Source: Minisyncoccia bacterium | GTDB lineage: Bacteria; Patescibacteriota; Minisyncoccia; 2-02-FULL-40-12; IGHO2-01-FULL-4-A | Direction of reading: 5' to 3' | DNA: 64,000 nucleotides | Assembly: GCA_050015375.1 (NCBI GenBank) | Contig: JBEKBN010000006.1 | Span: 454-64,453, forward strand | Shown: one piece after another, positions 5,849-60,049 of the stretch | Layout of the letters: each line of letters starts with the position of its first letter | How positions within the stretch are numbered: the first letter of the stretch is position 1 | The notes under the pieces: generated by a model | Database searches by the model: none | The model's input: only the letters and a program-made list of their open reading frames with translations | Told to the model about the DNA's origin: nothing | Translations under genes and position numbers: made by a program

Positions 5849-6574
5849 ATGTATTTATCCGTCATTATTCCCGCCTACAACGAAGAAAAAAGGATCGGCA
5901 AGACGCTTTTGGCGGTGGATGAATATCTATCGGGACAAAAATACGATTCTGAGATTATCGTGGTGGATAATAATTCAAAGGACAAAACGGCCGATATTGT
6001 CAATAATTTAAAATTTAAAATTTATAATTTAAAATTAATTTCCCAGCCAATTCAAGGCAAAGGCAATGCCGTAGCCAAAGGAATGCTTGAAGCATGGGGC
6101 GATTATCGGGTTTTCATGGATGCCGACAATTCCACCTCCATAGATCATATTGAAAAAATGTGGCCGTTCATTTCGACCGGTTACGATGTTGTCATAGGAT
6201 CGCTCGCGGTCAAAGGCGCAAAGATTCTCCAAGGCGGAGCCGAACCGTGGTGGCGAGTGCTTTTGGGGAAACTCGGCAACAAATGGATCCAGATCTTCGC
6301 GGTCTGGGGAATAAACGATACCCAAAGAGGTTTCAAAATGTTCACGGCCAGAGCGACGGAAAAAATATTTCCGAAATTGACAATATTTGGCTGGGGATTT
6401 GATGTCGAAGTTTTGGCTTTAGCAAAAAAATACGGATACAAAATAAAAGAAATTCCGATAATCTGGGATAACGACCCAAATTCAACGGTGAATTTCTGGG
6501 CCTATCCACAAGTTTTAATGCAAACCGTAAAAGTCAGATGGAATCTATTGATCGGGAAGTATAATAGCCATTAG
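5849..6574 (+). CDS. family 2 glycosyltransferase (dolichyl/polyprenyl-phosphate sugar transferase-like)
   Basis: N-terminus SVIIPAYNEEKRIGKTL...IVVDNNSKDKT...DADNS carries GT2 DxD-type motifs. Confidence 0.8.
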   Translation: MYLSVIIPAYNEEKRIGKTLLAVDEYLSGQKYDSEIIVVDNNSKDKTADIVNNLKFKIYNLKLISQPIQGKGNAVAKGMLEAWGDYRVFMDADNSTSIDHIEKMWPFISTGYDVVIGSLAVKGAKILQGGAEPWWRVLLGKLGNKWIQIFAVWGINDTQRGFKMFTARATEKIFPKLTIFGWGFDVEVLALAKKYGYKIKEIPIIWDNDPNSTVNFWAYPQVLMQTVKVRWNLLIGKYNSH

Positions 6575-7648: not shown

Positions 7649-8260
7649 ATGTCAATATTTACCGCGATCATTAACTGGGCTTTGGCGATCATCGGCGCGA
7701 CTGGATATTTGGGCTTGTTTTTGGCGATGATGTTGGAAAGCGCCGGCGTTCCGATCCCCTCAGAAGTCGTTTTGCCATTCGCCGGTTTTTTGGCGGCTTC
7801 GGGGAAATTCAGTTTGATATTGGTGATCGTAGTGGCCACTACCGCCAACTTGACCGGCGCGCTCATTTTTTTCACTATTGGATATTTTGGCGGCACGAGA
7901 TTTTTACGAAAATATGGACACTTTTTATTTATACGCGAAAAAGAAATTTCGAGAATGGAGCGTTGGCTTGACCGCCACGGCGGCAAGGTCGCTTTTTTCT
8001 CAAGGATGTTGCCCGGCGTCAGGACCTACAGCTCATTGGTGATAGGTTCGGGCAAGTCAAGATTGCGGACGTTTATCGGTTATACGCTTCTGGGCTCGGT
8101 CATCTGGAATTCCATCTGGGCCTATCTCGGATATTACACCGGAAACCGCTGGGAAATATTCGGACCCTACGTCAGAAAATTTGATTATTTAATTCTGGCA
8201 GCGATAATCATTTATATCATTGCTTTTTTTGCCAGACATTTCGGTAGAAAAAATAAATGA
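7649..8260 (+). CDS. DedA/SNARE-associated family membrane protein
   Basis: Multi-TM protein with a DedA-type motif (GLFLAMMLESAGVPIPSEVVLPFAGFLAASG). Confidence 0.75.
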   Translation: MSIFTAIINWALAIIGATGYLGLFLAMMLESAGVPIPSEVVLPFAGFLAASGKFSLILVIVVATTANLTGALIFFTIGYFGGTRFLRKYGHFLFIREKEISRMERWLDRHGGKVAFFSRMLPGVRTYSSLVIGSGKSRLRTFIGYTLLGSVIWNSIWAYLGYYTGNRWEIFGPYVRKFDYLILAAIIIYIIAFFARHFGRKNK

Positions 8261-9015
8261 AGACATTAGTAGCAAACTGGAAAATGAATCCCCAAAAATT
8301 GGCTGAAGCCGAGGAACTTTTTGAATACACCATCGCCGAATCGGCCAAATATCCGAACGTCAAAACGATAATTTGTCCGCCGTTCGTCTTTATTGAGGAA
8401 TTGTCCAAATTTCTACAAACTACAAACTACAAACTACAAACTAGCATCGGTTCCCAAAATATTTTTTGGGAATCCAAAGGAGCATATACCGGTGAGATTT
8501 CCACCGAGATGCTGAAAAATTTCGGCGTTAGCCATGTTTTGGTCGGCCATTCCGACCGGCGATATGTCATCGGCGAAACGGACGAGGAAATTAATAAAAA
8601 AATAAAAGCCGCGCTTTTGACCGATATAACCCCGGTGCTTCTAGTTGGCGAGAGAGAAGGCGAGAACCGCGAAGAAATTTTGAGGAAACAATTATCCGCT
8701 GACCTGGCCGGCGTTTCGGCGCCCCATTTGGGGAAGATCCTTTTTGCCTACGAACCGGTCTGGGCAATAAGCACAAATCCGAATGCAAAACCCGATACGC
8801 CCGAAAACACTTTGAAGGCGATCACATTTATAAATAATCTTCTTGCTATCAGCTATAAACTACCAGCCATAAGCTGTCTCTATGGCGGTTCGGTCAATGA
8901 AAAAAATATCGTTGATTTTCTCAAACATCCGGAAATCTCCGGCGCCGTCGTCGGCGGAGCCAGTTTGCGAAAAGAAGAATTTGGAAAAATGTTAAACTTA
9001 GTTTCAACAATTTAA
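8257..9015 (+). CDS. tpiA: triosephosphate isomerase
   Basis: ANWKMNP...VGHSDRRYVIGETDEEI...GGAS motifs. Overlaps the dedA stop (ATGA). Contains an in-frame heptamer-repeat insertion. Confidence 0.9.
   Translation: MKTLVANWKMNPQKLAEAEELFEYTIAESAKYPNVKTIICPPFVFIEELSKFLQTTNYKLQTSIGSQNIFWESKGAYTGEISTEMLKNFGVSHVLVGHSDRRYVIGETDEEINKKIKAALLTDITPVLLVGEREGENREEILRKQLSADLAGVSAPHLGKILFAYEPVWAISTNPNAKPDTPENTLKAITFINNLLAISYKLPAISCLYGGSVNEKNIVDFLKHPEISGAVVGGASLRKEEFGKMLNLVSTI
8413..8447. repeat. (CTACAAA)x4 heptamer tract inside tpiA, in frame, encoding LQTTNYKLQT
   Basis: Four perfect CTACAAA units plus a degenerate fifth (CTAGCAT). They map to a loop that is shorter in B. subtilis TPI. Confidence 0.7.
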
Positions 9016-12311: not shown

Positions 12312-12875
12312 ATGTCTTGGCAAATCTGTAAGCCGAATTCTGTTCCCCCACTTTTTGAGTTGCCCCAAAAGTGGGGGAGGCGATCATTTATCTGGTCCCT
12401 CGGTTACCCTCGGGATCTAGCGTCTCTTCCCCCACTTTTTAAGTTGCCCTAAAAGTGGGGGACACGGACTTGCACCGGGCAGGGTTTAGCGCGCATCCAT
12501 GTCGCCATGGAGCGGTCCCGTTCGGGGCCTTTTCACCCGTGATCCGCTTGCGCGGACTCGGAATAGTTTCTGTGCCACTTTCCCTGAATTTTGATAAATA
12601 ACTTTTGTCTTAAGAACAAAAACTATCCATCTTATATTCGGTGGCCATTAGCCACTGCCCTGCTTACGCAATCACCAACTGCTAATCTCTAATCTCAAAT
12701 AAAACCATTGGCGATCTTAGTTAACAATTAATGATTGCGTAAGCGGTGTTCGGACTTTCCTCCCTAAAACATTTTGCTTTCGCAAAATGTTCGGGCGATC
12801 AATTCGCAAAGCGAATTGATTTAGCCCCAAATCCAATAAGAATTCGTAGAGTAATCACCCGATTTACCAGGACTT
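12312..12875 (-). ncRNA. rnpB: RNase P RNA (bacterial type A-like) with an extended helix and twin hairpin insertions
   Basis: Reverse complement carries GGGAGGAAAGUCCGAAC (P4 5'), CAGGGCAG, AGUGGCACAGAAAC, CGCGCAAGCGGAUCACGGGUGAAAAGG, CUAAACCCUGCCCGGUGCAAG and ACAGAAUUCGGCUUACAG (J/P4 3'). These align with E. coli M1 RNA. The 5' and 3' ends are approximate. Confidence 0.8.
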
Positions 12876-19891: not shown

Positions 19892-20983
19892 GTGAAAATC
19901 GCATTGGTTCAGGACTATCTTGTCGAATACGGCGGGGCCGAGAGGGTTCTTCAGGCGCTTTGCGAAATTTTTCCGGAGGCGCCGATCTACACTTTACTTT
20001 ATGATGAGAAAGCCAGCGGCCGGGTTTTTCGCGACCGCGAGATCCACACCTCCTTTATCCAAAAGATTCCTTTCGCCCGGCGACACCACCGATTATTCGC
20101 GGCTTTGATGCCTTTGGCCATCGAACAATTCGATCTGTCGGAATTTGATTTTGTTTTATCGAACTCGGCTTCCTTCGGCAAGGGCGTCATCACCAAACCC
20201 AAAACCACCCACATCAACTACTGCATGACCCCGACAAGATTTCTTTGGGACGACAGTCATCGTTTTATTGATGAGTTCAAATTGCCTTGGCTGATCAGAA
20301 AAATGACACCAGCCGTCATCGCTTATCTTCGGATCTGGGACAAAGAGGCCGCCTTGCGGGTGGACGAATTCGTCGCTATTTCCAACCATGTAAAAACCCG
20401 GATCGCCAAATATTATCAGCGCGACGCGAAAGTCATCACTCCGCCGATAGATGTCAGCAAATATCATATAAGCCCCGAAGTTGACGAATATTTTTTAATG
20501 GTCGGCCGCTTAGTTGCCTACAAACGCTTTGACCTGGCGATCCAGGTTTTCAACGCCATCGGCAAACCATTGAAGATCGTCGGCGATGGGCCGGAGCGAT
20601 ATCGGCTTGAAAAAATGGCCAAAAAAAATATCGAATTTCTCGGTCTTGTCTCCGATGATAAATTGCCCGGACTCTACAGCCGCGCTCAAGCGGTGATTTT
20701 CCCCCAGGAAGAGGATTTCGGTTTGGTGCCGCTGGAAGCGATGGCTTCGGGCCGGCCGGTCATCGCGTATCGCGCCGGCGGGGCGCTGGAAACGGTCATT
20801 GATGGCCGGACTGGAATATTTTTTGACGAGCAAACGGAAATCTCGATGGCTTTGGCCATCAGCAGATATTACGAAACCAAATTCAATCCCAACGTTATCC
20901 GGGCCCACGCTTTGGATTTCGACAAATCCATCTTCAAGGAGAAAATTCTCAAATTGCTTGCCCCCACACTCAATCGCGATTGA
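19892..20983 (+). CDS. family 4 (group 1) glycosyltransferase
   Basis: GTG start. GT-B fold with C-terminal motif FPQEEDFGLVPLEAMASGRPVIAYRAGG. The stop codon is supplied by a palindromic element. Confidence 0.85.
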   Translation: MKIALVQDYLVEYGGAERVLQALCEIFPEAPIYTLLYDEKASGRVFRDREIHTSFIQKIPFARRHHRLFAALMPLAIEQFDLSEFDFVLSNSASFGKGVITKPKTTHINYCMTPTRFLWDDSHRFIDEFKLPWLIRKMTPAVIAYLRIWDKEAALRVDEFVAISNHVKTRIAKYYQRDAKVITPPIDVSKYHISPEVDEYFLMVGRLVAYKRFDLAIQVFNAIGKPLKIVGDGPERYRLEKMAKKNIEFLGLVSDDKLPGLYSRAQAVIFPQEEDFGLVPLEAMASGRPVIAYRAGGALETVIDGRTGIFFDEQTEISMALAISRYYETKFNPNVIRAHALDFDKSIFKEKILKLLAPTLNRD

Positions 20984-20992
20984 GTGTGGGGG
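20961..20992. repeat. palindromic element CCCCCACACTCA-ATCGCGAT-TGAGTGTGGGGG (copy 1 of 5) at the GT4 gene 3' end
   Basis: Perfect 12-bp arms. The TGA of the right arm serves as the gene's stop codon. Family copies are at 25056, 55616, 58240 and 60021. Confidence 0.75.
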
Positions 20993-23630: not shown

Positions 23631-25460
23631 ATGCAAAACATCCGCAATTTTTGTATAATTGCTCACATAGACCATGGCAAAAGCACCTTAGCCGACCGGC
23701 TTTTAGAATTGACGGGCACAATTGAAAAGCGCAAAATGCACGAACAATTTCTGGACCAGATGGAATTGGAGCGTGAAAGAGGGATTACCATAAAACTCCA
23801 ACCCGTCCGCATGCAATACGGCGAATATATTTTGAATTTAATAGATACGCCGGGCCATGTGGATTTCACCTACGAAGTTTCTCGTTCGCTGGCGGCGGTG
23901 GAGGGTGCGATTTTACTTGTGGATGCCGCCAAAGGCGTTCAAGCCCAGACACTGGCCAATTTGCATTTGGCGCAAAGACAGAATTTGGTCATTATTCCGG
24001 TCATCAACAAAATTGATCTACCCAATGCCAGAGTGGCCGAAGCCGAAGAAGAAATTTCCAATTTGCTTGCCGTTGAACCGGACGAAATTATCAAGATTTC
24101 CGCCAAGACCGGTGAAGGCGTGGAGAAAGTTCTTGAAGCGGTTGTCGAAAAAATTCCCCCGCCATCTACTCACTACTCACTACCAACTACCAACTATCCT
24201 CGCGCCCTGATTTTTGATTCCGCTTTTGACGCTTACAAAGGCGTTGTCGCTTATGTCAGGATTTTTGACGGCAACTTCCGGGCCGGAGACAAAATTAAAC
24301 TTTTCGCTTCCAAAGCCGAAGCCGAGATAATCGAAGTTGGTCAGTTTAAACCCGCCTTGAGCAAAACCGATTCTATCGGCGAAGGTGAGATCGGCTATAT
24401 CGCCACCGGTTTGAAAAATCCCGGCGATGTCCGCGTTGGTGATACGGTTTTCTCTACAAACTATAAACCACAAACTACAAACTTTTCACCCCTTCCCGGC
24501 TACAAAGAACCGATGCCGGTGGTTTTCGCCAGTTTTTTTCCGGAAAAAGGGGAAGATTATGATCTGCTGAAAGACGCGCTGGGAAAACTGAAATTGACCG
24601 ATGCCTCGCTGACTTATGAACCGGAATCTTCACCAGCCCTCGGCCGGGGTTTTCGCCTTGGCTTTCTGGGTATGCTCCACACCGAGATCATCAGTGAGCG
24701 GTTGCGCCGGGAATTCAAATTGTCGCTGATAATTTCCTCGCCGTCGGTGGAATATCACATTTTGAAAAAGAACGGCCAAGAAATTCCCATCCGTTCGGCA
24801 TCAGAGATGCCCAATCCGAGTTATATTGATAAAATTTTCGAACCGACGGTTGTGCTGGAATTGTTGAGCCCATCTGAATATCTCGGTTCATTGATGAAAC
24901 TTCTTTCCGAAATGCGAAGCTCTTATCTAGCCACTGATTATTTGACCAAGGAAATCGTGATTTTAAAATACAAAGTCCCGCTGACTGAAATTGTGACCGA
25001 TTTTTATGACAAACTGAAAAGCGTCAGTTCCGGTTACGCTTCGATGAGTTATTCACCCCCACACTCATTAGATGAGTGTGGGGGCAAGCAGGATGGCTAT
25101 GAGGAATCTGATCTGGTTCGGCTGGATATTTTGGTGGCCGGGGATTTGGTTGAACCGTTTTCGAGAATGGTTCCGAGATCGCGCGTTCATGACGAAGGCA
25201 AGAGAATTGTCGAGAAGTTGAAGAAAATAATTCCGCGGCAATGGTTCGCGGTGGCGATCCAAGCGGCCATCGGCGGGAAAATAATCGCTCGGGAAACCAT
25301 CAGCGCTTTGCGAAAAGATGTTACCGGTTATCTCTACGGCGGGGATATTACCCGCAAGAAAAAATTATTGGAGAAGCAAAAGAGGGGGAAGGCGAGGATG
25401 AAAGAGGAAGGCAAGGTGAATATTCCGCAGAATGTGTTTCTGGAGATGCTGAAAAAGTAG
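23631..25460 (+). CDS. lepA: elongation factor 4 (LepA)
   Basis: IRNFCIIAHIDHGKSTLADRLL...DTPGHVDF and a C-terminus matching E. coli LepA. Contains three in-frame repeat insertions. Confidence 0.92.
   Translation: MQNIRNFCIIAHIDHGKSTLADRLLELTGTIEKRKMHEQFLDQMELERERGITIKLQPVRMQYGEYILNLIDTPGHVDFTYEVSRSLAAVEGAILLVDAAKGVQAQTLANLHLAQRQNLVIIPVINKIDLPNARVAEAEEEISNLLAVEPDEIIKISAKTGEGVEKVLEAVVEKIPPPSTHYSLPTTNYPRALIFDSAFDAYKGVVAYVRIFDGNFRAGDKIKLFASKAEAEIIEVGQFKPALSKTDSIGEGEIGYIATGLKNPGDVRVGDTVFSTNYKPQTTNFSPLPGYKEPMPVVFASFFPEKGEDYDLLKDALGKLKLTDASLTYEPESSPALGRGFRLGFLGMLHTEIISERLRREFKLSLIISSPSVEYHILKKNGQEIPIRSASEMPNPSYIDKIFEPTVVLELLSPSEYLGSLMKLLSEMRSSYLATDYLTKEIVILKYKVPLTEIVTDFYDKLKSVSSGYASMSYSPPHSLDECGGKQDGYEESDLVRLDILVAGDLVEPFSRMVPRSRVHDEGKRIVEKLKKIIPRQWFAVAIQAAIGGKIIARETISALRKDVTGYLYGGDITRKKKLLEKQKRGKARMKEEGKVNIPQNVFLEMLKK
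24166..24200. repeat. heptamer tract (CTACTCA x2, CTACCAA x2, CTATCCT) in frame inside lepA, encoding STHYSLPTTNYP
   Basis: Five 7-nt units with a CTA anchor. Absent from E. coli LepA at the equivalent PAPQGDPDAPLQ position. Confidence 0.65.
24454..24488. repeat. heptamer tract (CTACAAA/CTATAAA/CCACAAA/CTACAAA) in frame inside lepA, encoding TNYKPQTTNF
   Basis: Same unit as the tpiA tract. About 7 extra residues relative to E. coli LepA. Confidence 0.65.
25056..25084. repeat. palindromic element CCCCCACACTCA-TTAGA-TGAGTGTGGGGG (copy 2) inserted in frame in lepA, encoding SPPHSLDECGG
   Basis: Perfect 12-bp arms with a 5-nt loop. Adds about 11 residues relative to E. coli LepA between GYAS and SDLV. 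Confidence 0.75.
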
Positions 25461-30038: not shown

Positions 30039-30109
30039 GCGGGATTAGTACAGTGGCAGTACAATTGCTTCCCAAGCAATGGACGCGAGTTCGATTCTCG
30101 TATCCCGCT
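30039..30109 (+). tRNA. tRNA-Gly (anticodon CCC)
   Basis: Acceptor GCGGGAT/ATCCCGC, D-arm GTACAGTGGCAGTAC, anticodon loop TTCCCAA, T-loop TTCGATT. CCA is not encoded. Confidence 0.85.
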
Positions 30110-30269
30110 CAAAAATCAAAAAATTTTTTGATTTTTGAGCGGGTAAGCGAGCAAATTTATTGCTCGCGTCAAGATGAGAACGCCGGAGCGATGTTTCGCG
30201 AGTGATTGGCGAGCGAAACCGCGAGGCGGTGGCTAGACCGAGCCGCCGGAAGGCGGCGAGAGTCGAAGC

Positions 30270-31473: not shown

Positions 31474-31517
31474 ATAACATGTAGATATTGACCATATGGT
31501 CAATATCTACATGTTAT
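31474..31517. promoter_or_regulatory. 44-bp perfect palindrome (ATAACATGTAGATATTGACCAT|ATGGTCAATATCTACATGTTAT), putative operator
   Basis: Perfect dyad 30 bp upstream of the PaaX-like gene, in a divergent region shared with arsR. A near-copy is at 32111-32138. Confidence 0.6.
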
Positions 31518-46683: not shown

Positions 46684-47758
46684 ATGACTACTTTGCGTGA
46701 AGAATTGAATAGTATGCAAGATAAGTGCCGTGCCGTGCGGCACCGTCTTTGACCTAGGCGAATCGCGAGAAAAAATCAAGCAAATTGAAACCGAAATGCA
46801 AGCGCCCGGTTTTTGGAATAACAACGAAAAAGCCGGTAAAGCGTCAAAAGAATTAAATGATCTAAAAACCGAAGTCGAATTCTGGGAAACAACGATGCTG
46901 GAACTGGACGAATTCGGAAAGATGTCCGACGAGGAAATTCAGAAAAAAGAAATCGAAATCCGAGCTTTCAAAAAGAATTTCGACAAAGAATACATAAAAA
47001 TATTTTTGTCAGGAAAATACGACAAAGGCAATGCCCTTTTGTATGTCTATTCCGGCGCCGGCGGCGTGGACGCCCAGGATTGGGCTTCAATGCTTTTGCG
47101 GATGTATCAGAAATACGCCGAGCGCGAGGGTTATGGCTGGACGCTTTTGCAACAGTCCTTTGGCGAGCAGAACGGCACCAAAAGCGCCGTCGCCGAGATC
47201 ACCGGCCGCTGGGCTTACGGAAAATTGCGGGGCGAGGCCGGTGTTCATCGTTTGGTCAGGATTTCACCCTTCTCGGCCAAGTCGTTGCGCCACACATCGT
47301 TCGCTCTCGTGGACGTGCTTCCCGAGATTGAAGATGTTAAAATTAATATTGACCCGAAAGATCTGCGAATTGATACTTTTCGGTCATCGGGACCGGGCGG
47401 ACAGAATGTCAACAAACTGGAAACGGCCGTCAGGATCACCCATATTCCGACGAATCTGACCGTTGCCGTCCAATCGGAGCGTTCTCAAGCCCAGAACAAA
47501 GCCAAAGCCATGACGCTCTTGCAATCCCGTCTGGCGCAATTGATGGAAGAGAAAAAAATTCAGGAAATTTCCGAGCTTCGGCTTGACACCAAAGACAGCG
47601 CCATTGAATGGGGTAGTCAGATCCGTTCCTATGTCATTCATCCTTACAAGATGGTCAAAGACCACCGGACCGAGGTTGAGACGACGCAGGTTGACAAGGT
47701 TCTGGAAGGGGAGTTGGATGAATTCATAGAAAAAGAGTTGGTGGTTGGTAGGTCGTAG
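46684..47758 (+). CDS. prfB: peptide chain release factor 2, with a programmed +1 frameshift: join(46684..46749,46751..47758)
   Basis: Frame 0 reads MTTLREELNSMQDKCRAVRHRL then CTT TGA C (46747-46753). The +1 frame continues DLGESREKIKQ...SGPGGQNVNK...GSQIRSYV. Confidence 0.88.
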
Positions 47759-47780
47759 TTTGTAGATTGGAACGCCAAAA

Positions 47781-47816
47781 CTACTTACTACTCACTACTT
47801 ACTACAAACTAACTTG
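47781..47816. repeat. heptamer tract (CTACTTA/CTACTCA/CTACTTA/CTACAAA/CTAACTT) abutting the ftsE TTG start
   Basis: Five 7-nt CTA-anchored units ending CTAACTTG, the same junction as at the galT TTG start. Confidence 0.6.
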
Positions 47817-48497
47817 ATCGAGTTTAAAAATCTGACAAAAATTTACGAACCAAATATCGTGGTTCTGGACAACATCAACCTTGAAATTAAAAAAGGCGAG
47901 TTTGTTTCTTTGGTCGGACTTTCCGGCGCCGGCAAATCCACGATGATGAAAATGCTGACCAAAGAAGAAAAACCGACCAAAGGCAAAGTTCTAATAGACA
48001 AAATCGATGTTGATTCGATCGAGGGTAAAGAAATTCCATATTTCCGGCGGACCATCGGCACGGTTTATCAGGATTATAAATTATTAACCGCCAAAACCGC
48101 CTACGAAAATGTCGCCTTCGCCATGGAAGTTTCCGATGCCACCAAAGACGACATCGCCAAAGACGTGCCTCAGATCTTATCTATCGTCGGTTTGGCCGAC
48201 AAGAGCGGAAATTTTCCCAGCCAGTTGTCGGGCGGCGAGAAACAGCGACTGGCCATTGCCCGGGCGCTCATCCACCGGCCGAAAATCCTTCTCGCCGACG
48301 AGCCGACCGGCAATCTGGATTTGGTCAACAGTTTTGATGTGGTAAAATTATTATTGAAGATAAACGAGCTGGGCACGACAGTCATTTTGGCCACCCATGA
48401 CACCAATATCGTCAACACCATCGGCCGGCGGGTGGTCAGCATGGACAAAGGCAAGATCGTCAAAGACCAATTAGAGAACGGAAGATACGTAATATGA
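47814..48497 (+). CDS. ftsE: cell division ATP-binding protein FtsE
   Basis: TTG start. Walker A GLSGAGKST, LSGGEKQRLAIARAL and ILLADEPTGNLD. An ftsX-like gene follows immediately. Confidence 0.88.
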   Translation: MIEFKNLTKIYEPNIVVLDNINLEIKKGEFVSLVGLSGAGKSTMMKMLTKEEKPTKGKVLIDKIDVDSIEGKEIPYFRRTIGTVYQDYKLLTAKTAYENVAFAMEVSDATKDDIAKDVPQILSIVGLADKSGNFPSQLSGGEKQRLAIARALIHRPKILLADEPTGNLDLVNSFDVVKLLLKINELGTTVILATHDTNIVNTIGRRVVSMDKGKIVKDQLENGRYVI

Positions 48498-55256: not shown

Positions 55257-56543
55257 ATGACCGTTTCTGATATAATTAAACAAATGGAGGAAAAAGAAAA
55301 TGAATTGAAATTCCCCAACGGGTTTTTGTGGGGGACGGCCACGTCAAGCTATCAGATAGAAGGTGGAATAAATAATTGCGACTGGGCCCAAGCGAATCGC
55401 GGTCCCTCGACAAGTTCAGGACATCAGATTCCTGATGCTGGGCGCGCTTGCGATAGTTACAATAAATACGAGGAGGATTTTGATATTGCCAAATCGCTTG
55501 GCCAGAACGCCCACCGTTTCTCTATAGAATGGGCGCGGATCGAGCCGGAAGAGGGAAAATTCGACGAGAAAGAAATCGAGCATTATAAAAAAGTGCTGGA
55601 CGCCTTGCGAACTCGCCCCCACACTCAAGATTTGAGTGTGGGGGGAACGGGATTGGAACCATTCGTGACCCTTTGGCATTTCACGCTTCCGGTTTGGTTC
55701 GCGAAAATGGGCGGTTTCGAAAATCCGAAATCACCGGAAATATTTTCCCGATATTGCGAATTTGTCGTTGGCAAAATGGGGGATAGAGTTCACCCTGTTA
55801 AATCCGGCGAAGCCGGTGCCGCGGAGCGGCAATTTAACAGGGTAAAATTCTGGGTAACTATAAACGAACCGATGGTTTATGCCTCGAATGGTTACCGAAA
55901 AGGTCAATGGCCGCCGTTTGAAAAAAATATTTTCAGGTTCATGAAGGTTATCAAAAATCTAATCATGTCGCACAATCTAGCATATGACAAAATCAAGAAC
56001 ATTGATCCTTCGGCTCAGATCGGCATCGCTAAAAATAATATAAATTTTGAGGCAAATTGGAACCCAATCAATCGCCTCTTGTCAAGCTTTCTGAATTTTT
56101 TCTGGAATCGCAGATTTTTGAATAAAATTTCACAGGATTTCATCGGTTTGAATTATTATTTCCACAAAAAGTTCGGGGATAGGGCGAAGTATCCGAAATC
56201 CGACATGGGTTGGGATATTTATCCGAAAGGAATTTATAATTTGCTGATGGAACTGAAAAAATATGGTAAACCGGTTTACATCACCGAAAACGGATTGGCG
56301 GACAAAGAAGACAAACAACGCGCCGATTTCATCCGTGAACATTTGAAATGGGTTTCGAGAGCGATCCGGGATGGCTCTGACTGCCGCGGATATTTTTATT
56401 GGTCGCTTCTGGATAATTTTGAGTGGGCGGAGGGTTACAAACAAAAATTCGGTTTGGTGGAAATTAATTTTGAAACAATGGAAAGAAAGATCAGGAATTC
56501 AGCGTGGGAATTTGCAAAAATTTGTAAAAATAACGAAATATGA
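55257..56543 (+). CDS. glycoside hydrolase family 1 (beta-glucosidase-like) carrying two in-frame palindromic insertions
   Basis: FLWGTATSSYQIEGG, TINEP (acid/base) and ITENGLA (nucleophile). Carries insertions RTRPHTQDLSVGG and HPVKSGEAGAAERQFNRV relative to canonical GH1. Confidence 0.88.
   Translation: MTVSDIIKQMEEKENELKFPNGFLWGTATSSYQIEGGINNCDWAQANRGPSTSSGHQIPDAGRACDSYNKYEEDFDIAKSLGQNAHRFSIEWARIEPEEGKFDEKEIEHYKKVLDALRTRPHTQDLSVGGTGLEPFVTLWHFTLPVWFAKMGGFENPKSPEIFSRYCEFVVGKMGDRVHPVKSGEAGAAERQFNRVKFWVTINEPMVYASNGYRKGQWPPFEKNIFRFMKVIKNLIMSHNLAYDKIKNIDPSAQIGIAKNNINFEANWNPINRLLSSFLNFFWNRRFLNKISQDFIGLNYYFHKKFGDRAKYPKSDMGWDIYPKGIYNLLMELKKYGKPVYITENGLADKEDKQRADFIREHLKWVSRAIRDGSDCRGYFYWSLLDNFEWAEGYKQKFGLVEINFETMERKIRNSAWEFAKICKNNEI
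55616..55644. repeat. palindromic element CCCCCACACTCA-AGATT-TGAGTGTGGGGG (copy 3), in frame in GH1
   Basis: Perfect 12-bp arms. Encodes RPHTQDLSVGG, inserted before the conserved GxEPFVTLxHxxLP block. Confidence 0.75.
55793..55842. repeat. second, distinct GC-rich palindromic insertion (CCCTGTTAAAT-28 nt-ATTTAACAGGG), in frame in GH1
   Basis: 11-bp perfect arms. The loop itself holds two hairpins (CCGGC-GAA-GCCGG and GCCGC-GGA-GCGGC). Encodes about 16 extra residues between GDRV and KFWVTINEP. Confidence 0.65.
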
Positions 56544-57427
56544 TCTGGATCCTTCTGGCAATTCTGTCCCAATTCATCTCCGCCGGCGTTTACATGGCCG
56601 ACAAGTATCTTGTTGGACCCAAAGCCATCGGCCGGCCGGTGGTTTACGCCATCTATGTCTGCTTGCTTTCGGGTTTCGTTTTGGTTTTATTGCCTTTTGG
56701 CGTGGTTTTGCCGCTGACCTGGCCGCTAATTGCGCTTTGTCTGGGGATCACGGTTGCTTTCACGACTTCCCTATTATTTCTTTATTCCGCTCTTAAAACT
56801 TCTGATGTTTCGGATGTGGCGCCGGTCATGGGCGCGATCTCGGCCGTGGCCACATTGGCTTTCGGACTGTATTTTTTGGATTCAATGCTGCCCAGATTAT
56901 TTTTCATCGGCTTTCCGCTTTTGATATTCGGGACTTTTCTGATGTCGCGTTTTCGGTTTAATAAGAAATCCTCCTTTTATGTTATCGCCGCCGGAATTCT
57001 TTTCGGACTTTCATCGATTTTAATAAAAATATTGTTCGGAGAAACCTCATTTCTTAACGCGTTTTTCTGGTCGCGGATGACGAATGTTTTCGGCGCGATA
57101 ATTTTACTTTTGTGGCCGGCGAATTTCAAAGCCGTGTTCAGCAATGTCAAAAGTTCGACCGGCGGAACGAAAATTTTGGTCGTCGGCAACAAAACGCTGG
57201 CCGGTATCGCCTATCTCTTATCGCTGGTGGCAATAAAACTCGGCAATGTTACCGTCGTCAACTCATTGGCCGGTTTTGAATTCGTTTTTATTTTGCTTCT
57301 GGCTTTTATTTTCACTTATAAATTTCCGAAATATTTTCAAGAGGCCGTTCACAACAAAAACGACCGGCTGAAAAAGATCTGGGCTTCGGGTTTGATAATA
57401 ATCGGGTTCGTGATCATGTTCCTATGA
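56540..57427 (+). CDS. hypothetical polytopic membrane protein (about 10 TM)
   Basis: 295 aa and strongly hydrophobic. No motif. Confidence 0.5.
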   Translation: MIWILLAILSQFISAGVYMADKYLVGPKAIGRPVVYAIYVCLLSGFVLVLLPFGVVLPLTWPLIALCLGITVAFTTSLLFLYSALKTSDVSDVAPVMGAISAVATLAFGLYFLDSMLPRLFFIGFPLLIFGTFLMSRFRFNKKSSFYVIAAGILFGLSSILIKILFGETSFLNAFFWSRMTNVFGAIILLLWPANFKAVFSNVKSSTGGTKILVVGNKTLAGIAYLLSLVAIKLGNVTVVNSLAGFEFVFILLLAFIFTYKFPKYFQEAVHNKNDRLKKIWASGLIIIGFVIMFL

Positions 57428-58509
57428 AGAAGCACAAAAAATATTTTTCAATTCCCATTATCCTTTTCTTGATCCTTTTGGTTTTAACCTTGGCTTGGAA
57501 TTTGCTTTCCATCAGGCCGGTTCCCGAAAAAGTAAATTACGGCGTTTCGTTCAGCGTTTTTCATTCCAACGAACTCAATCTGGATTGGAAAAAAACATAT
57601 TTGGCGATCTTAGACGATCTTAAGGTCAGGAACTTGCGGCTTACCGCTCATTGGCCGCTGACCGAGCCGGCCGACGGCAAATACGATTTCTCAGAATTGG
57701 ATTTTCAGATAAACGAAGCCGATAAACGCGGCGCGACCTATATTCTGGCCGTCGGCCGGCGCCTGCCCGGCTGGCCGGAATGCCATGTGCCGGATTGGGT
57801 TATGAATCAAGAATCACAAATCACGAATCAAGGTGAAAAAACTGATTTTGAGAACCAAAAGTTATTGGAATATATTCAGACGACCGTTGAGCGTTACAAA
57901 AATTCCCCCGGTCTGAAATATTGGCAAGTCGAGAATGAACCGTTCCTAGGATTTTTCGGCCGTTCGAGCTGCCAATTGACCGACGAGAATTTTTTCAAAC
58001 AGGAGATCGCTCTTGTCCATAAACTCGATCCGACCCATCCGGTTCTGGCGACCGACAGCGGCGAGTTCGGCTATTGGTATCAGGCCTACCGCGACGGTGA
58101 TGTTTTCGGCACCTCCTTGTATCTGTATGTTTGGTGGCGGGCGCTTGGCATCGGCCCCTTGCGTTATCCCATCGGGCCGTCGTTTTTCCGAGTGAAGCAA
58201 AATGTGGTTGATTTTATCGGTTGTGTCTTGGGCGATTCACCCTCACACTCAATTTTTGAGTGTGAGGGCAAGCCGACAATTCTCATTGAACTGGAAGCCG
58301 AGCCCTGGCTTTTAACACCGATCGTTGACGCGCCGATGGCGACTCTCCTTGACCGGATGGGGATTGATAAATTCGAAACCATGATCCAAACCGCCAAAGA
58401 AGCCGGTTTTGGCGACCAATATCTCTGGGGCGCCGAGTGGTGGTATTGGATGGAACAAAATGGCCATCCGGAATTTTGGCAGGCGGCGAAGCAACTTTTT
58501 AACCAATAA
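57424..58509 (+). CDS. glycoside hydrolase, clan GH-A (GH5/GH113-like)
   Basis: Signal/TM N-terminus, then YWQVENEPF (acid/base NEP) and LIELEAEPW (nucleophile Glu). The family is not resolved. Confidence 0.55.
   Translation: MKKHKKYFSIPIILFLILLVLTLAWNLLSIRPVPEKVNYGVSFSVFHSNELNLDWKKTYLAILDDLKVRNLRLTAHWPLTEPADGKYDFSELDFQINEADKRGATYILAVGRRLPGWPECHVPDWVMNQESQITNQGEKTDFENQKLLEYIQTTVERYKNSPGLKYWQVENEPFLGFFGRSSCQLTDENFFKQEIALVHKLDPTHPVLATDSGEFGYWYQAYRDGDVFGTSLYLYVWWRALGIGPLRYPIGPSFFRVKQNVVDFIGCVLGDSPSHSIFECEGKPTILIELEAEPWLLTPIVDAPMATLLDRMGIDKFETMIQTAKEAGFGDQYLWGAEWWYWMEQNGHPEFWQAAKQLFNQ
58240..58268. repeat. palindromic element variant CCCTCACACTCA-ATTTT-TGAGTGTGAGGG (copy 4), in frame in the GH-A hydrolase gene
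   Basis: Both arms carry a compensatory change (C to T paired with G to A), so pairing is preserved. Encodes SPSHSIFECEGKP. Confidence 0.75.
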
Positions 58510-59956: not shown

Positions 59957-59963
59957 TCCATCG

Positions 59964-60001
59964 AAGAGCGGCCCGCTCGCGAGCGAGCGGGCCGCTCTTC
60001 A
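59964..60001 (+). terminator. GC-rich 17-bp perfect stem-loop after htrA (no U-tract)
   Basis: GAAGAGCGGCCCGCTCG-CGAG-CGAGCGGGCCGCTCTTC. Probably a transcript-end or processing structure. Confidence 0.4.
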
Positions 60002-60020: not shown

Positions 60021-60049
60021 CCCCCACACTCATGCATGAGAACGGGGGC
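60021..60049. repeat. degenerate intergenic copy (copy 5) of the CCCCCACACTCA palindromic element
   Basis: CCCCCACACTCATGCATGAGAACGGGGG has a left arm identical to the family and a decayed right arm. Confidence 0.5.

Follow-up and report, generated by a model that had tools for sequence, protein, structure and literature searches.

The lepA gene (EF4, elongation factor 4) of a Minisyncoccia bacterium raises the question of why a translation factor should carry a tandem array of the 7-base unit CTACAAA that is also present in the unrelated gene tpiA, both genes encoding nearly the same peptide there. The DNA analyzed is a stretch of 64,000 nucleotides (nt) of contig JBEKBN010000006.1, called the window in what follows, which contains the two genes. 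An earlier note on this DNA had described the lepA array as a CTACAAA-type tract encoding TNYKPQTTNF, had related it to a tpiA tract of the same unit, and had concluded that one DNA-level repeat, rather than two converging proteins, had been copied into unrelated genes. The two tracts and the DNA-level nature of their resemblance were borne out by our analysis. The word "copied" was not, and we favor the renewal of resident microsatellites in place. The features on which the argument rests are the following.

23631-25460, + strand: lepA (EF4), a 609-residue open reading frame (ORF), host of two heptamer tracts and a palindromic insert, identified by structure and database match
24166-24196, + strand: lepA site 1, CTACTCA CTACTCA CTACCAA CTACCAA CTA (31 nt), peptide STHYSLPTTNY, found by Tandem Repeats Finder, a period-7 test and the structural model
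24454-24488, + strand: lepA site 2, a decayed heptanucleotide tract, documented by reading of the sequence, Tandem Repeats Finder, the sister-strain allele and an AlphaFold model
8257-9015, + strand: tpiA, triosephosphate isomerase, host of two tracts, identified from its ORF and alignment to solved structures
8413-8443, + strand: tpiA site A, perfect (CTACAAA)x4 + CTA (31 nt), peptide LQTTNYKLQT, Tandem Repeats Finder x4.4 at 100%
8842-8877, + strand: tpiA site B, decayed, (CTT) GCTATCA GCTATAA ACTACCA GCCATAA GCTGT, peptide LAISYKLPAISC, a period-14 row of Tandem Repeats Finder, period-7 P = 0.01

The heptanucleotide tract of lepA

The identity of the host gene is straightforward. The product of ORF 23631-25460 matched T. 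thermophilus EF4 5IMQ at E = 7.9e-193, aligned end to end with this solved EF4, and was 100% identical to the NCBI entry "translation elongation factor 4 [Minisyncoccia bacterium]", which places the window in a Patescibacteria genome close to Candidatus Yanofskybacteria. At site 2, the letters of the + strand read CTACAAA CTATAAA CCACAAA CTACAAA CTTTTCA, and the codons from 24453 to 24485 give STNYKPQTTNF (then S), which corresponds to LepA residues of about 275-286. Tandem Repeats Finder reported positions 24454-24483 with period 7, 4.3 copies, 82% matches, a score of 46 and the consensus CTACAAA. With at least three head-to-tail copies of a 7-base unit, the tract belongs to the heptanucleotide simple-sequence repeats (SSRs). 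It is a direct repeat only, and neither a terminal inverted repeat nor a palindrome was found at the site.

Two other candidates were rejected. A slippery heptamer for programmed -1 frameshifting does not fit, as the zero frame (TCT ACA AAC TAT AAA CCA CAA ACT ACA AAC TTT) contains no X XXY YYZ motif and full-length LepA aligns to solved EF4. An assembly artefact is incompatible with the presence of the same tracts in an independent sample of the Joint Genome Institute (JGI), that of the sister strain L126 described below, and of analogous tracts in dozens of independent assemblies.

The nucleotide similarity between lepA and tpiA exceeds what the shared peptide alone would imply, which was the point on which the earlier note could have failed. 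Between lepA site 2 and tpiA site A, the codon is identical at 5 of the 6 shared residues (P = 0.03), including the rare ACA and AAC; in this genome ACA accounts for 17% of Thr codons, and CTA for 4% of Leu codons. The self-match of lepA site 2 at a lag of 7 nt is 19/26, against 12.8 in random back-translations of its peptide (P = 0.006), and the same test gave P <= 1e-5 for both tpiA site A and lepA site 1. The codon phase differs between the two genes, CTA being a codon in tpiA while lepA reads xCT ACA, and lepA site 2 has a period of 7 in its nucleotides without any periodicity in its amino acids inside the tract. Since a 7-base repeat cycles through all three reading frames, the cyclic peptide LQTTNYK is obtained in any phase, and the near identity of the lepA and tpiA peptides is thus automatic. 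No frame of CTACAAA contains a stop codon, whereas its complement TTTGTAG contains TAG, which is why the genic copies are all in sense orientation. Lastly, the allele of the sister strain at this site supports the same conclusion: lepA site 2 is a DNA-level heptanucleotide repeat, and not a case of peptide convergence.

The position of the tracts in the folded proteins was read from AlphaFold models of LepA and TpiA, built from alignments of relatives. LepA site 1 (residues 179-190) is modelled as a coil that joins the G domain to domain II, its predicted local distance difference test (pLDDT) score being below 50 at residues 180-183, and site 2 at the start of a coil (residues 276 to 297) between domains II and III, with pLDDT blocks of 80 and 66. 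The TpiA model has a mean pLDDT of 92; site A there covers the end of helix 2, a loop and the start of strand 3, and site B is predicted at the end of helix 6, a loop and strand 7. From standard TIM-barrel topology, both TpiA sites would be on the face of the barrel opposite the active site. In the alignments to solved structures, the tract-bearing places of LepA and TpiA differ in length by just 3-4 residues. The tracts are in frame and at positions compatible with the fold in two unrelated genes, in interdomain linkers of LepA and in helix-to-strand connections of TpiA.

The tract of lepA is one of several in the window. The sequence CTACAAACTACAAA (two CTACAAA units) has 9 matches at no more than 2 mismatches, against 0.33 expected, and CTACNNNCTACNNNCTAC (CTAC three times at 7-base spacing) has 11 matches at no more than 1 mismatch, against 0.01 expected. 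Among periods of 4 to 12, seven tracts of period 7 were counted against 0.0 in Markov shuffles, and periods 4, 5, 8, 10, 11 and 12 gave 0-1; period 6 gave four weak tracts at the lowest threshold, and at the strictest threshold period 7 alone remains. The relatives L002-L004 show the same period-7 excess. Six loci in the window belong to one unit family, ACTACNN (8413, 8842, 24166, 24454, 47737 on the - strand, and 47780). The tracts found in addition to those of lepA and tpiA are listed here.

47737-47769, - strand: left arm of an inverted pair, reverse complement CTACAAA CTACGAC CTACCAA CCACCAA, overlapping the stop of prfA (46730-47758)
47780-47811, + strand: right arm of the inverted pair, ACTACTT ACTACTC ACTACTT ACTACAA ACTAAC, just upstream of ftsE (47814-48497)
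6005-6036, + strand: AATTTAA x4.6 in a GT2 glycosyltransferase, peptide NLKFKIYNLKL, Tandem Repeats Finder
1180-1213, + strand: AAAAATC/AAAATGC tract forming the C-terminal tail of ribosomal protein S5, KNLKIKNQNAK and the stop, Tandem Repeats Finder
57804-57830, + strand: GAATCAA-family tract in a glycosyl-hydrolase-like ORF, peptide MNQESQITNQ, Tandem Repeats Finder

The pair between prfA and ftsE forms a long imperfect hairpin in the sense transcript, with a computed RNA folding energy of -29.0 kcal/mol (z -3.8) on the + strand and -20.3 kcal/mol (z -3.0) on the - strand. No inverted partner arm was found in the window near the single genic tracts. In the syntenic relative L186, the S5 ortholog lacks the tail tract, and the GT2 tract takes the place of a segment of equal length in the L186 ortholog.

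The same loops in a sister strain and in distant relatives

The closest comparison is provided by L126, the DNA of the second member of the 90% protein cluster of this LepA, which comes from another sample and is about 90% identical over the aligned region. At lepA site 2, L126 reads A CTACAAA CTACAAA CTACAAA CCACAAA CTT, which encodes TTNYKLQTTNF. At site 1 it is identical to the window except for 1 nt. The number of units is the same in the window and in L126 at both lepA tracts of this one strain pair, and at site 2 the point changes relative to (CTACAAA)4 are particular to each strain. Equal length together with separate point changes implies a near-perfect (CTACAAA)4 + CT tract in the common ancestor, with its copy number kept and its sequence now decaying. 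The two strains differ at 3 of 13 residues in the site 2 tract, compared with 17 of the 597 residues of the whole protein (P = 0.005 in a hypergeometric test), which argues that the peptide is under little constraint; site 2 evolves about eight times faster than the remaining LepA. Judging from the two alleles, lepA site 2 was inherited from a common ancestor with L126, has kept its length, and now decays through point substitutions that freely alter the peptide. A metagenome scan for other close lepA relatives returned matches only at no more than 70% identity, and yielded no pair of filled and empty heptamer-tract sites.

Independently of these tracts, the LepA G domain of L126 contains a 72-nt in-frame insertion (KSRFVSDEVGGNKSRILDSDKSESG, L126 4171-4242), located between window positions 23976 and 23977. 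It is made of three small palindromes, CTCCGAC..GTCGGAG, AATCGAGGATCCTCGATT and TCTGATAAATCAGA, and the window represents the empty site.

At larger distances, we aligned 120 LepA and 120 TpiA homologues, mostly of Paceibacteria type. The tract-bearing loops are hypervariable in length across both sets. They hold other peptides with a period of 7 residues in many lineages, such as TTNYKLQTTNC, MTNDELRMTNG, ITNYQLPITNYQ, GNWKLEIGN, KVQSSKFKVQ and TRNYKLETRNY, and many homologues have short, tract-free loops. In the two TpiA loops, the autocorrelation of the peptides at lag 7 amounts to 18% and 23.5%, whereas most other lags give 3-11%, and lag 6 gives 15.8% at site B. Tripeptides common to both TpiA loops of one protein numbered 17 against 7.0 expected, yet single permutations reach 18.

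The DNA of these relatives consists of tandem heptamers of other units, namely AATGACG, GGAAATT, AATTTCC, AAAGCTA (with five tracts in one lepA), ATTACCA x5.4, CAAAGTT x4 and CTACCAA/CTACGAA/CTACAAA, and their tracts are typically about 31 nt long whichever the unit. In 35 lepA genes, 21 strong tracts were found at four positions, after residues of about 62, 178, 275 and 377. In the lepA of L003, a distance of 700 nt separates AATTTCC from its reverse complement GGAAATT. Orthologous loops of relatives at 81-83% LepA identity have different tracts or none, the closest relative with a different site-2 unit being P0002 (83%). In L001 (81% LepA identity), site 2 reads (TTACAAA TTTCAAA)2, of which the units are 1-2 mutations from CTACAAA, followed by more decayed units. 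At lepA site 1, the same L001 (10001-11854) carries a GC-rich palindromic insert (CCCTCCTTCGCTCCGTCGGAGCTTCGGAAGGGC, peptide LLRSVGASEGQA) where the window has its heptamer tract. In L186 and L188 (63% TpiA identity), CTACAAA tracts occupy both sites of tpiA; one of these tracts is perfect, and site B is a perfect (AACTACA)x4.7. In L004 (8343-8453, 9142-9216), an inverted pair occurs in the spacer between prfA and ftsE as well, with another unit (AGTAATT / AATTACC), and the spacer after ftsE holds one more inverted heptamer pair. These inverted pairs may represent a conserved hairpin role with a free choice of unit.

To estimate how far CTACAAA itself extends, we searched for exact (CTACAAA)3 in 185,579 genomes, one per species, and obtained at least 120 loci from at least about 98 genomes. 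They include at least 37 in Patescibacteria, 34 in Bacteroidota, 7 in Parabeggiatoa (one metagenome-assembled genome), 5 in Cyanobacteria and 5 in Megasphaera, each of these counts being a lower bound. Among the matches listed, the cyanobacterial hosts are Calothrix, Nostoc and Coleofasciculus, several genomes have 2-7 loci each, and 42 of 123 perfect (CTACAAA)n tracts are located in the interior of long sense ORFs. Read from translations alone, the putative tract-bearing genes encode MurB, aminopeptidase N (PepN), a UvrD-like helicase, MiaB, PheT, ValS and IleS, and the cyclic peptide LQTTNYK recurs in many unrelated proteins. Among the matches listed, the clustering of (CTACAAA)3 by genome is far beyond chance for 185,579 genomes.

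The borders of the tracts were also considered. Around 125 (CTACAAA)n tracts among the matches listed, no conserved flank was found (no more than 0.3 bit per position). The tract ends are biased in phase in the same matches, with starts at CTAC, ends at CT(A) and a length modulo 7 of 3-4 favored. A consistent target-site duplication was not found either; the 31-nt tract at L003 site 2 is bordered by a possible duplication of CGATA, which has no counterpart at the other sites.

For units compared within and between loci or genomes, 19.7% of pairs within and 5.4% between are within one mismatch (permutation P = 0.0005), a difference largely driven by locus L093 of Candidatus Portiera aleyrodidarum. 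This locus (120001-128000), in the reduced genome of an insect endosymbiont, packs a dense cluster of long heptamer tracts into 2.5 kb; their units are several and related, and the longest tract has 77 nt.

Proposed renewal in place and its rivals

We hypothesize, with a probability of roughly 60%, that the lepA tract is an in-frame heptanucleotide microsatellite, that is, a long simple-sequence repeat resembling the short tandemly repeated repetitive (STRR) sequences, resident at its site, renewed in place, and filtered by reading frame, stop codons and fold. Tracts would be born from a short direct-repeat seed; slipped-strand mispairing and short-patch conversion, acting at DNA level both inside one tract and from one tract to another, would then renew them. 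As 7 and 3 are coprime, all frames would be read, and in genes only units without sense-strand stops would survive; among these, the survivors would be the events that keep the frame in structurally permissive loops. The same few LepA and TpiA loops would be reoccupied across lineages by drifting units because only such events survive. The encoded peptide would be a tolerated passenger without a function of its own, and a further role as RNA hairpins is possible for the inverted intergenic pairs.

Several observations point to local renewal. The 14-base super-period of L001 is the signature expected of local duplication after mutation, and the AABB pattern of units at lepA site 1 of the window, in which two differing bases are common to neighboring units, is of the same kind. 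A passive neutral tract of 31 nt could not have stayed perfect over the distance represented by 63% TpiA identity, so that the tpiA tracts of L186 and L188 must have been renewed. The replacement of an equal-length segment in the GT2 gene is also consistent with this reading, and a phase bias of (CTACAAA)n ends would be expected if tracts grow from a short direct-repeat seed. The modelled position of the tracts, their recurrence in few loops and their sense orientation agree with the proposed filter.

Nevertheless, this explanation has weaknesses. Simple slippage does not explain why ACTACNN occurs at six loci of the window, why (CTACAAA)n clusters by genome, or why an identical unit is found in unrelated phyla. 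Gaining three units at once from a seed of one unit would be a non-standard slippage, and steps of a single unit would frameshift lepA and tpiA. Moreover, the apparent stability of copy number comes from n = 2, a single close strain pair. The sharing of units among the loci of one genome is real, and is the part of the data that still favors some genome-wide process.

Such a process is the basis of the first rival, which we regard as rather unlikely. In this case, the agent would be a tiny mobile element, a repeat-writing enzyme, or replication or repair that switches template to another tract; it would insert or overwrite about 31 nt at many places, and selection would keep the in-frame, stop-free copies in tolerant loops. 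The six loci of one unit family in 64 kb, the multiple (CTACAAA)n loci per genome and the greater likeness of units within loci or genomes than between them (19.7% vs 5.4%) would follow, although this last statistic is dominated by the Portiera locus. The recurrence of about 31 nt for many different units would also follow, as would the AATTTCC tract and its reverse complement in the lepA of L003, and the S5 tail tract missing from a syntenic relative; besides, other tiny elements clearly insert in frame in these genomes. However, 31 nt is not a multiple of 3, and a plain insertion would cause a frameshift. The different or missing tracts in orthologous loops at 81-83% LepA identity agree with copying, but several of the "different" units at orthologous sites are just 1-2 mutations apart, and the site-2 unit of L001 with its 14-base period fits old resident tracts, locally renewed, at least as well. 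The same loops also hold 7-base tracts of other units in many lineages. Lastly, the hallmarks of insertion are missing: the 125 tracts listed have no conserved flanks or termini beyond the repeat itself, the CGATA candidate at L003 site 2 is unique where a consistent target-site duplication would be expected, and no filled and empty pair was found among close strains, the window and L126 being both filled. It is on these grounds that we do not retain the earlier claim that the repeat was copied into unrelated genes.

A bolder form of the same idea appears to us slightly more doubtful. A dedicated process common to Patescibacteria, Bacteroidota, cyanobacteria and Beggiatoa-like bacteria would write tracts of about 31 nt (four heptamers and three bases) across the genome from a genome-specific repertoire of units. 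The permissive loops of housekeeping proteins in ultrasmall bacteria would then be continuously remodelled by selfish micro-repeats, and the tracts would in turn become landing pads for palindromic mini-elements of about 30 nt.

Selection of the tracts as cis-acting nucleic-acid elements seems to us quite improbable as a general explanation. They would be sites for a single-strand binding protein with a 7-base footprint, or signals of pausing, termination or processing, kept in the genes where they are needed. This agrees with the well-folding prfA-ftsE pair (-29 kcal/mol, z -3.8), with the inverted pair of another unit in the orthologous spacer of L004, where the hairpin potential is kept and the sequence changed, and with the persistence of CTACAAA tracts at the same tpiA sites across 63% protein identity. 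A translational regulation by TAACTGA repeats has been proposed by MacGregor, and heptamer binding by cold-shock proteins is also discussed (PMC4679880). On the other hand, lepA site 2 is visibly decaying in the window and in L126, many homologues have short loops without a tract, the single genic tracts have no nearby partner arm, and units vary widely between genomes, our analysis having brought up no candidate binding protein. A cis-acting role is thus plausible only for the intergenic inverted pairs.

Finally, protein-level selection of the peptide TNYK-QTT, as a convergent or functional motif of which the DNA similarity would be a by-product, can practically be dismissed: LQTTNYK does recur in many unrelated proteins, but any phase of the unit yields the peptide, the periodicity and codon identity of the DNA go beyond the needs of the peptide (rare codons being used), unlike peptides occupy the same loops elsewhere (NFQFPIS, KVQSSKF, MTNDELR, GNWKLEI), and, between the sister strains, the tract changes about eight times faster than LepA elsewhere, so that convergence is ruled out by the codon and periodicity tests together with the L126 allele.

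Known repeats and accompanying palindromes

The STRR sequences of cyanobacteria were reportedly described by Mazel and colleagues in 1990. In a strict sense, the tracts of the window are unlike them, the host being a member of Minisyncoccia/Patescibacteria and the unit being CTACAAA instead of those of STRR1-3. Other heptamer repeats are GGGAATC/GGGGAYT in Xanthomonas and Nostoc (Rehm et al. 2015, PMC4692102) and TAACTGA in Beggiatoaceae, cyanobacteria and Bacteroidetes (MacGregor 2015, PMC4679880), and a general excess of heptamers in bacteria was found by Mrazek et al. 2007, as summarized in PMC4679880. According to these studies (PMC4692102, PMC4679880), heptamer SSRs are in excess, prefer about 4 units, include inverted pairs, and are mainly intergenic and under-represented in coding regions, with a mechanism that is unknown. 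The tracts reported here are similar in their tandem 7-base units, their copy number of about 4, their many loci per genome, their genome-specific units and their occasional hairpin-capable inverted pairs, and the (CTACAAA)3 matches fall in the same phyla (cyanobacteria, Parabeggiatoa, Bacteroidota). They differ in their host, which belongs to the Patescibacteria or Candidate Phyla Radiation (CPR), and in being mostly translated inside housekeeping-type genes: most tracts of the window are genic (two in tpiA, two in lepA, and those of the GT2, S5 and glycosyl-hydrolase-like genes), unlike the mainly intergenic STRR, GGGAATC and TAACTGA repeats.

Two other kinds of coding repeats are worth comparing. 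Rickettsia palindromic elements (Ogata et al. 2000, 2002), in the summary given by PMC10969869, are palindromes of about 100-150 bp with a conserved sequence and one conserved peptide each, and are regarded as mobile, like transposable elements of the miniature inverted-repeat type (MITEs). As far as this summary describes them, they share with our tracts the occurrence of in-frame repeated DNA in unrelated housekeeping genes, the compatibility with the fold, and a passenger peptide without evident function; the window tract differs as a direct tandem repeat of 31-35 nt without inverted termini. Phase-variable contingency loci, known in Haemophilus, Neisseria and others, are long, perfect and polymorphic SSRs in surface, restriction-modification or lipopolysaccharide (LPS) genes (PMC11868660, PMC2651432). 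They are alike in being coding-region SSRs whose unit is not a multiple of three, so that a change of one unit shifts the frame. The one pair of strains compared here has equal copy numbers. Unlike contingency loci, the tract here is short and imperfect, and is situated in a translation factor and in a glycolytic enzyme; lepA site 2, with its four imperfect units in the middle of the gene, is neither a long perfect tract nor part of a surface, LPS or restriction-modification gene.

In the searchable literature, we found no report of heptamer tracts in Patescibacteria, of the CTACAAA unit or of LQTTNYK-type peptides, nor of a systematic in-frame heptamer occupancy of housekeeping-protein loops in Patescibacteria. 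Our data show translated heptamer tracts in permissive loops throughout the clade and, in part, across phyla. For at least one large clade of ultrasmall bacteria, a noticeable part of the variation in length of conserved proteins (LepA, TpiA, S5 and others) is due to translated microsatellites and tiny palindromes, and not to protein-level evolution. This bears on the reading of insertions in CPR proteins and RNAs, on the trimming of alignments and phylogenies, and on the reading of structure predictions. Also, the old heptamer-repeat problem of cyanobacteria, Xanthomonas and Beggiatoaceae now concerns streamlined genomes, which have hardly any intergenic space and in which genes have to accommodate the repeats. 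As one loop can be compared across hundreds of genomes, there are orthologous, datable sites at which to follow the birth, renewal and decay of repeats, and the mechanism becomes testable by comparative genomics.

Besides the heptamer tracts, the window contains a second family of tiny repeats, perfect 13+3+13 palindromes of the form CCCCCACACTCA[A/T]-NNN-[A/T]TGAGTGTGGGGG, with the following copies.

25056-25084: palindrome of the 13+3+13 family, in lepA
55616-55644: palindrome of the 13+3+13 family
58240-58268: palindrome of the 13+3+13 family
20961-20992: palindrome of the 13+3+13 family
60021-60048: palindrome of the 13+3+13 family

The lepA copy is in frame and encodes PPHSLDECGG. Compared with T. 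thermophilus EF4, it adds 11 residues, and the model gives residues 476-487 a pLDDT below 50; 11 of the 120 LepA homologues have some insertion at this site. Two further copies lie inside ORFs 55257-56543 and 57424-58509.

A palindromic element of about 30 nt, CCGCTTCRCYAAAGCTTCAGCGAGGYGAG (peptide AS-KLQRGEQ), was found together with a second palindrome nested in the CTACAAA tract of tpiA site A of L186 (8001-8831). The CCGCTTCRCYAAAGCTTCAGCGAGGYGAG element is absent from the close relative L188 (697-1464), and is also nested in an AGCAACC tract at lepA site 1 of the unrelated contig L187 (3055-4884). Another mini-element seems to use heptamer tracts as landing sites. In cyanobacteria, small dispersed repeats that are nested in others were reportedly described by Elhai and co-workers in 2008; the likeness to our palindromes of about 30 nt, nested in heptamer tracts in two genes of two genomes, concerns the nested palindromes rather than the tract of heptamers.

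The RNase P RNA gene (window 12313-12810, - strand) has 498 nt against a model of 367 positions, with a 132-nt insertion that holds a short heptamer tract, CTAATCT x2.7, at 12682-12700. It also contains two copies (12344-12383 and 12423-12462) of a palindrome related to the CCCCCAC...GTGGGGG family. Small repeats thus occupy a structural RNA gene too.

Perfect palindromes with arms of 18-24 nt occur at 30104-30143, 31474-31517 and 59963-60000 of the window, adjoining tRNA-Gly and in intergenic positions. The one at 30104-30143 begins in the last bases of tRNA-Gly (30039-30110) and has the appearance of a terminator.

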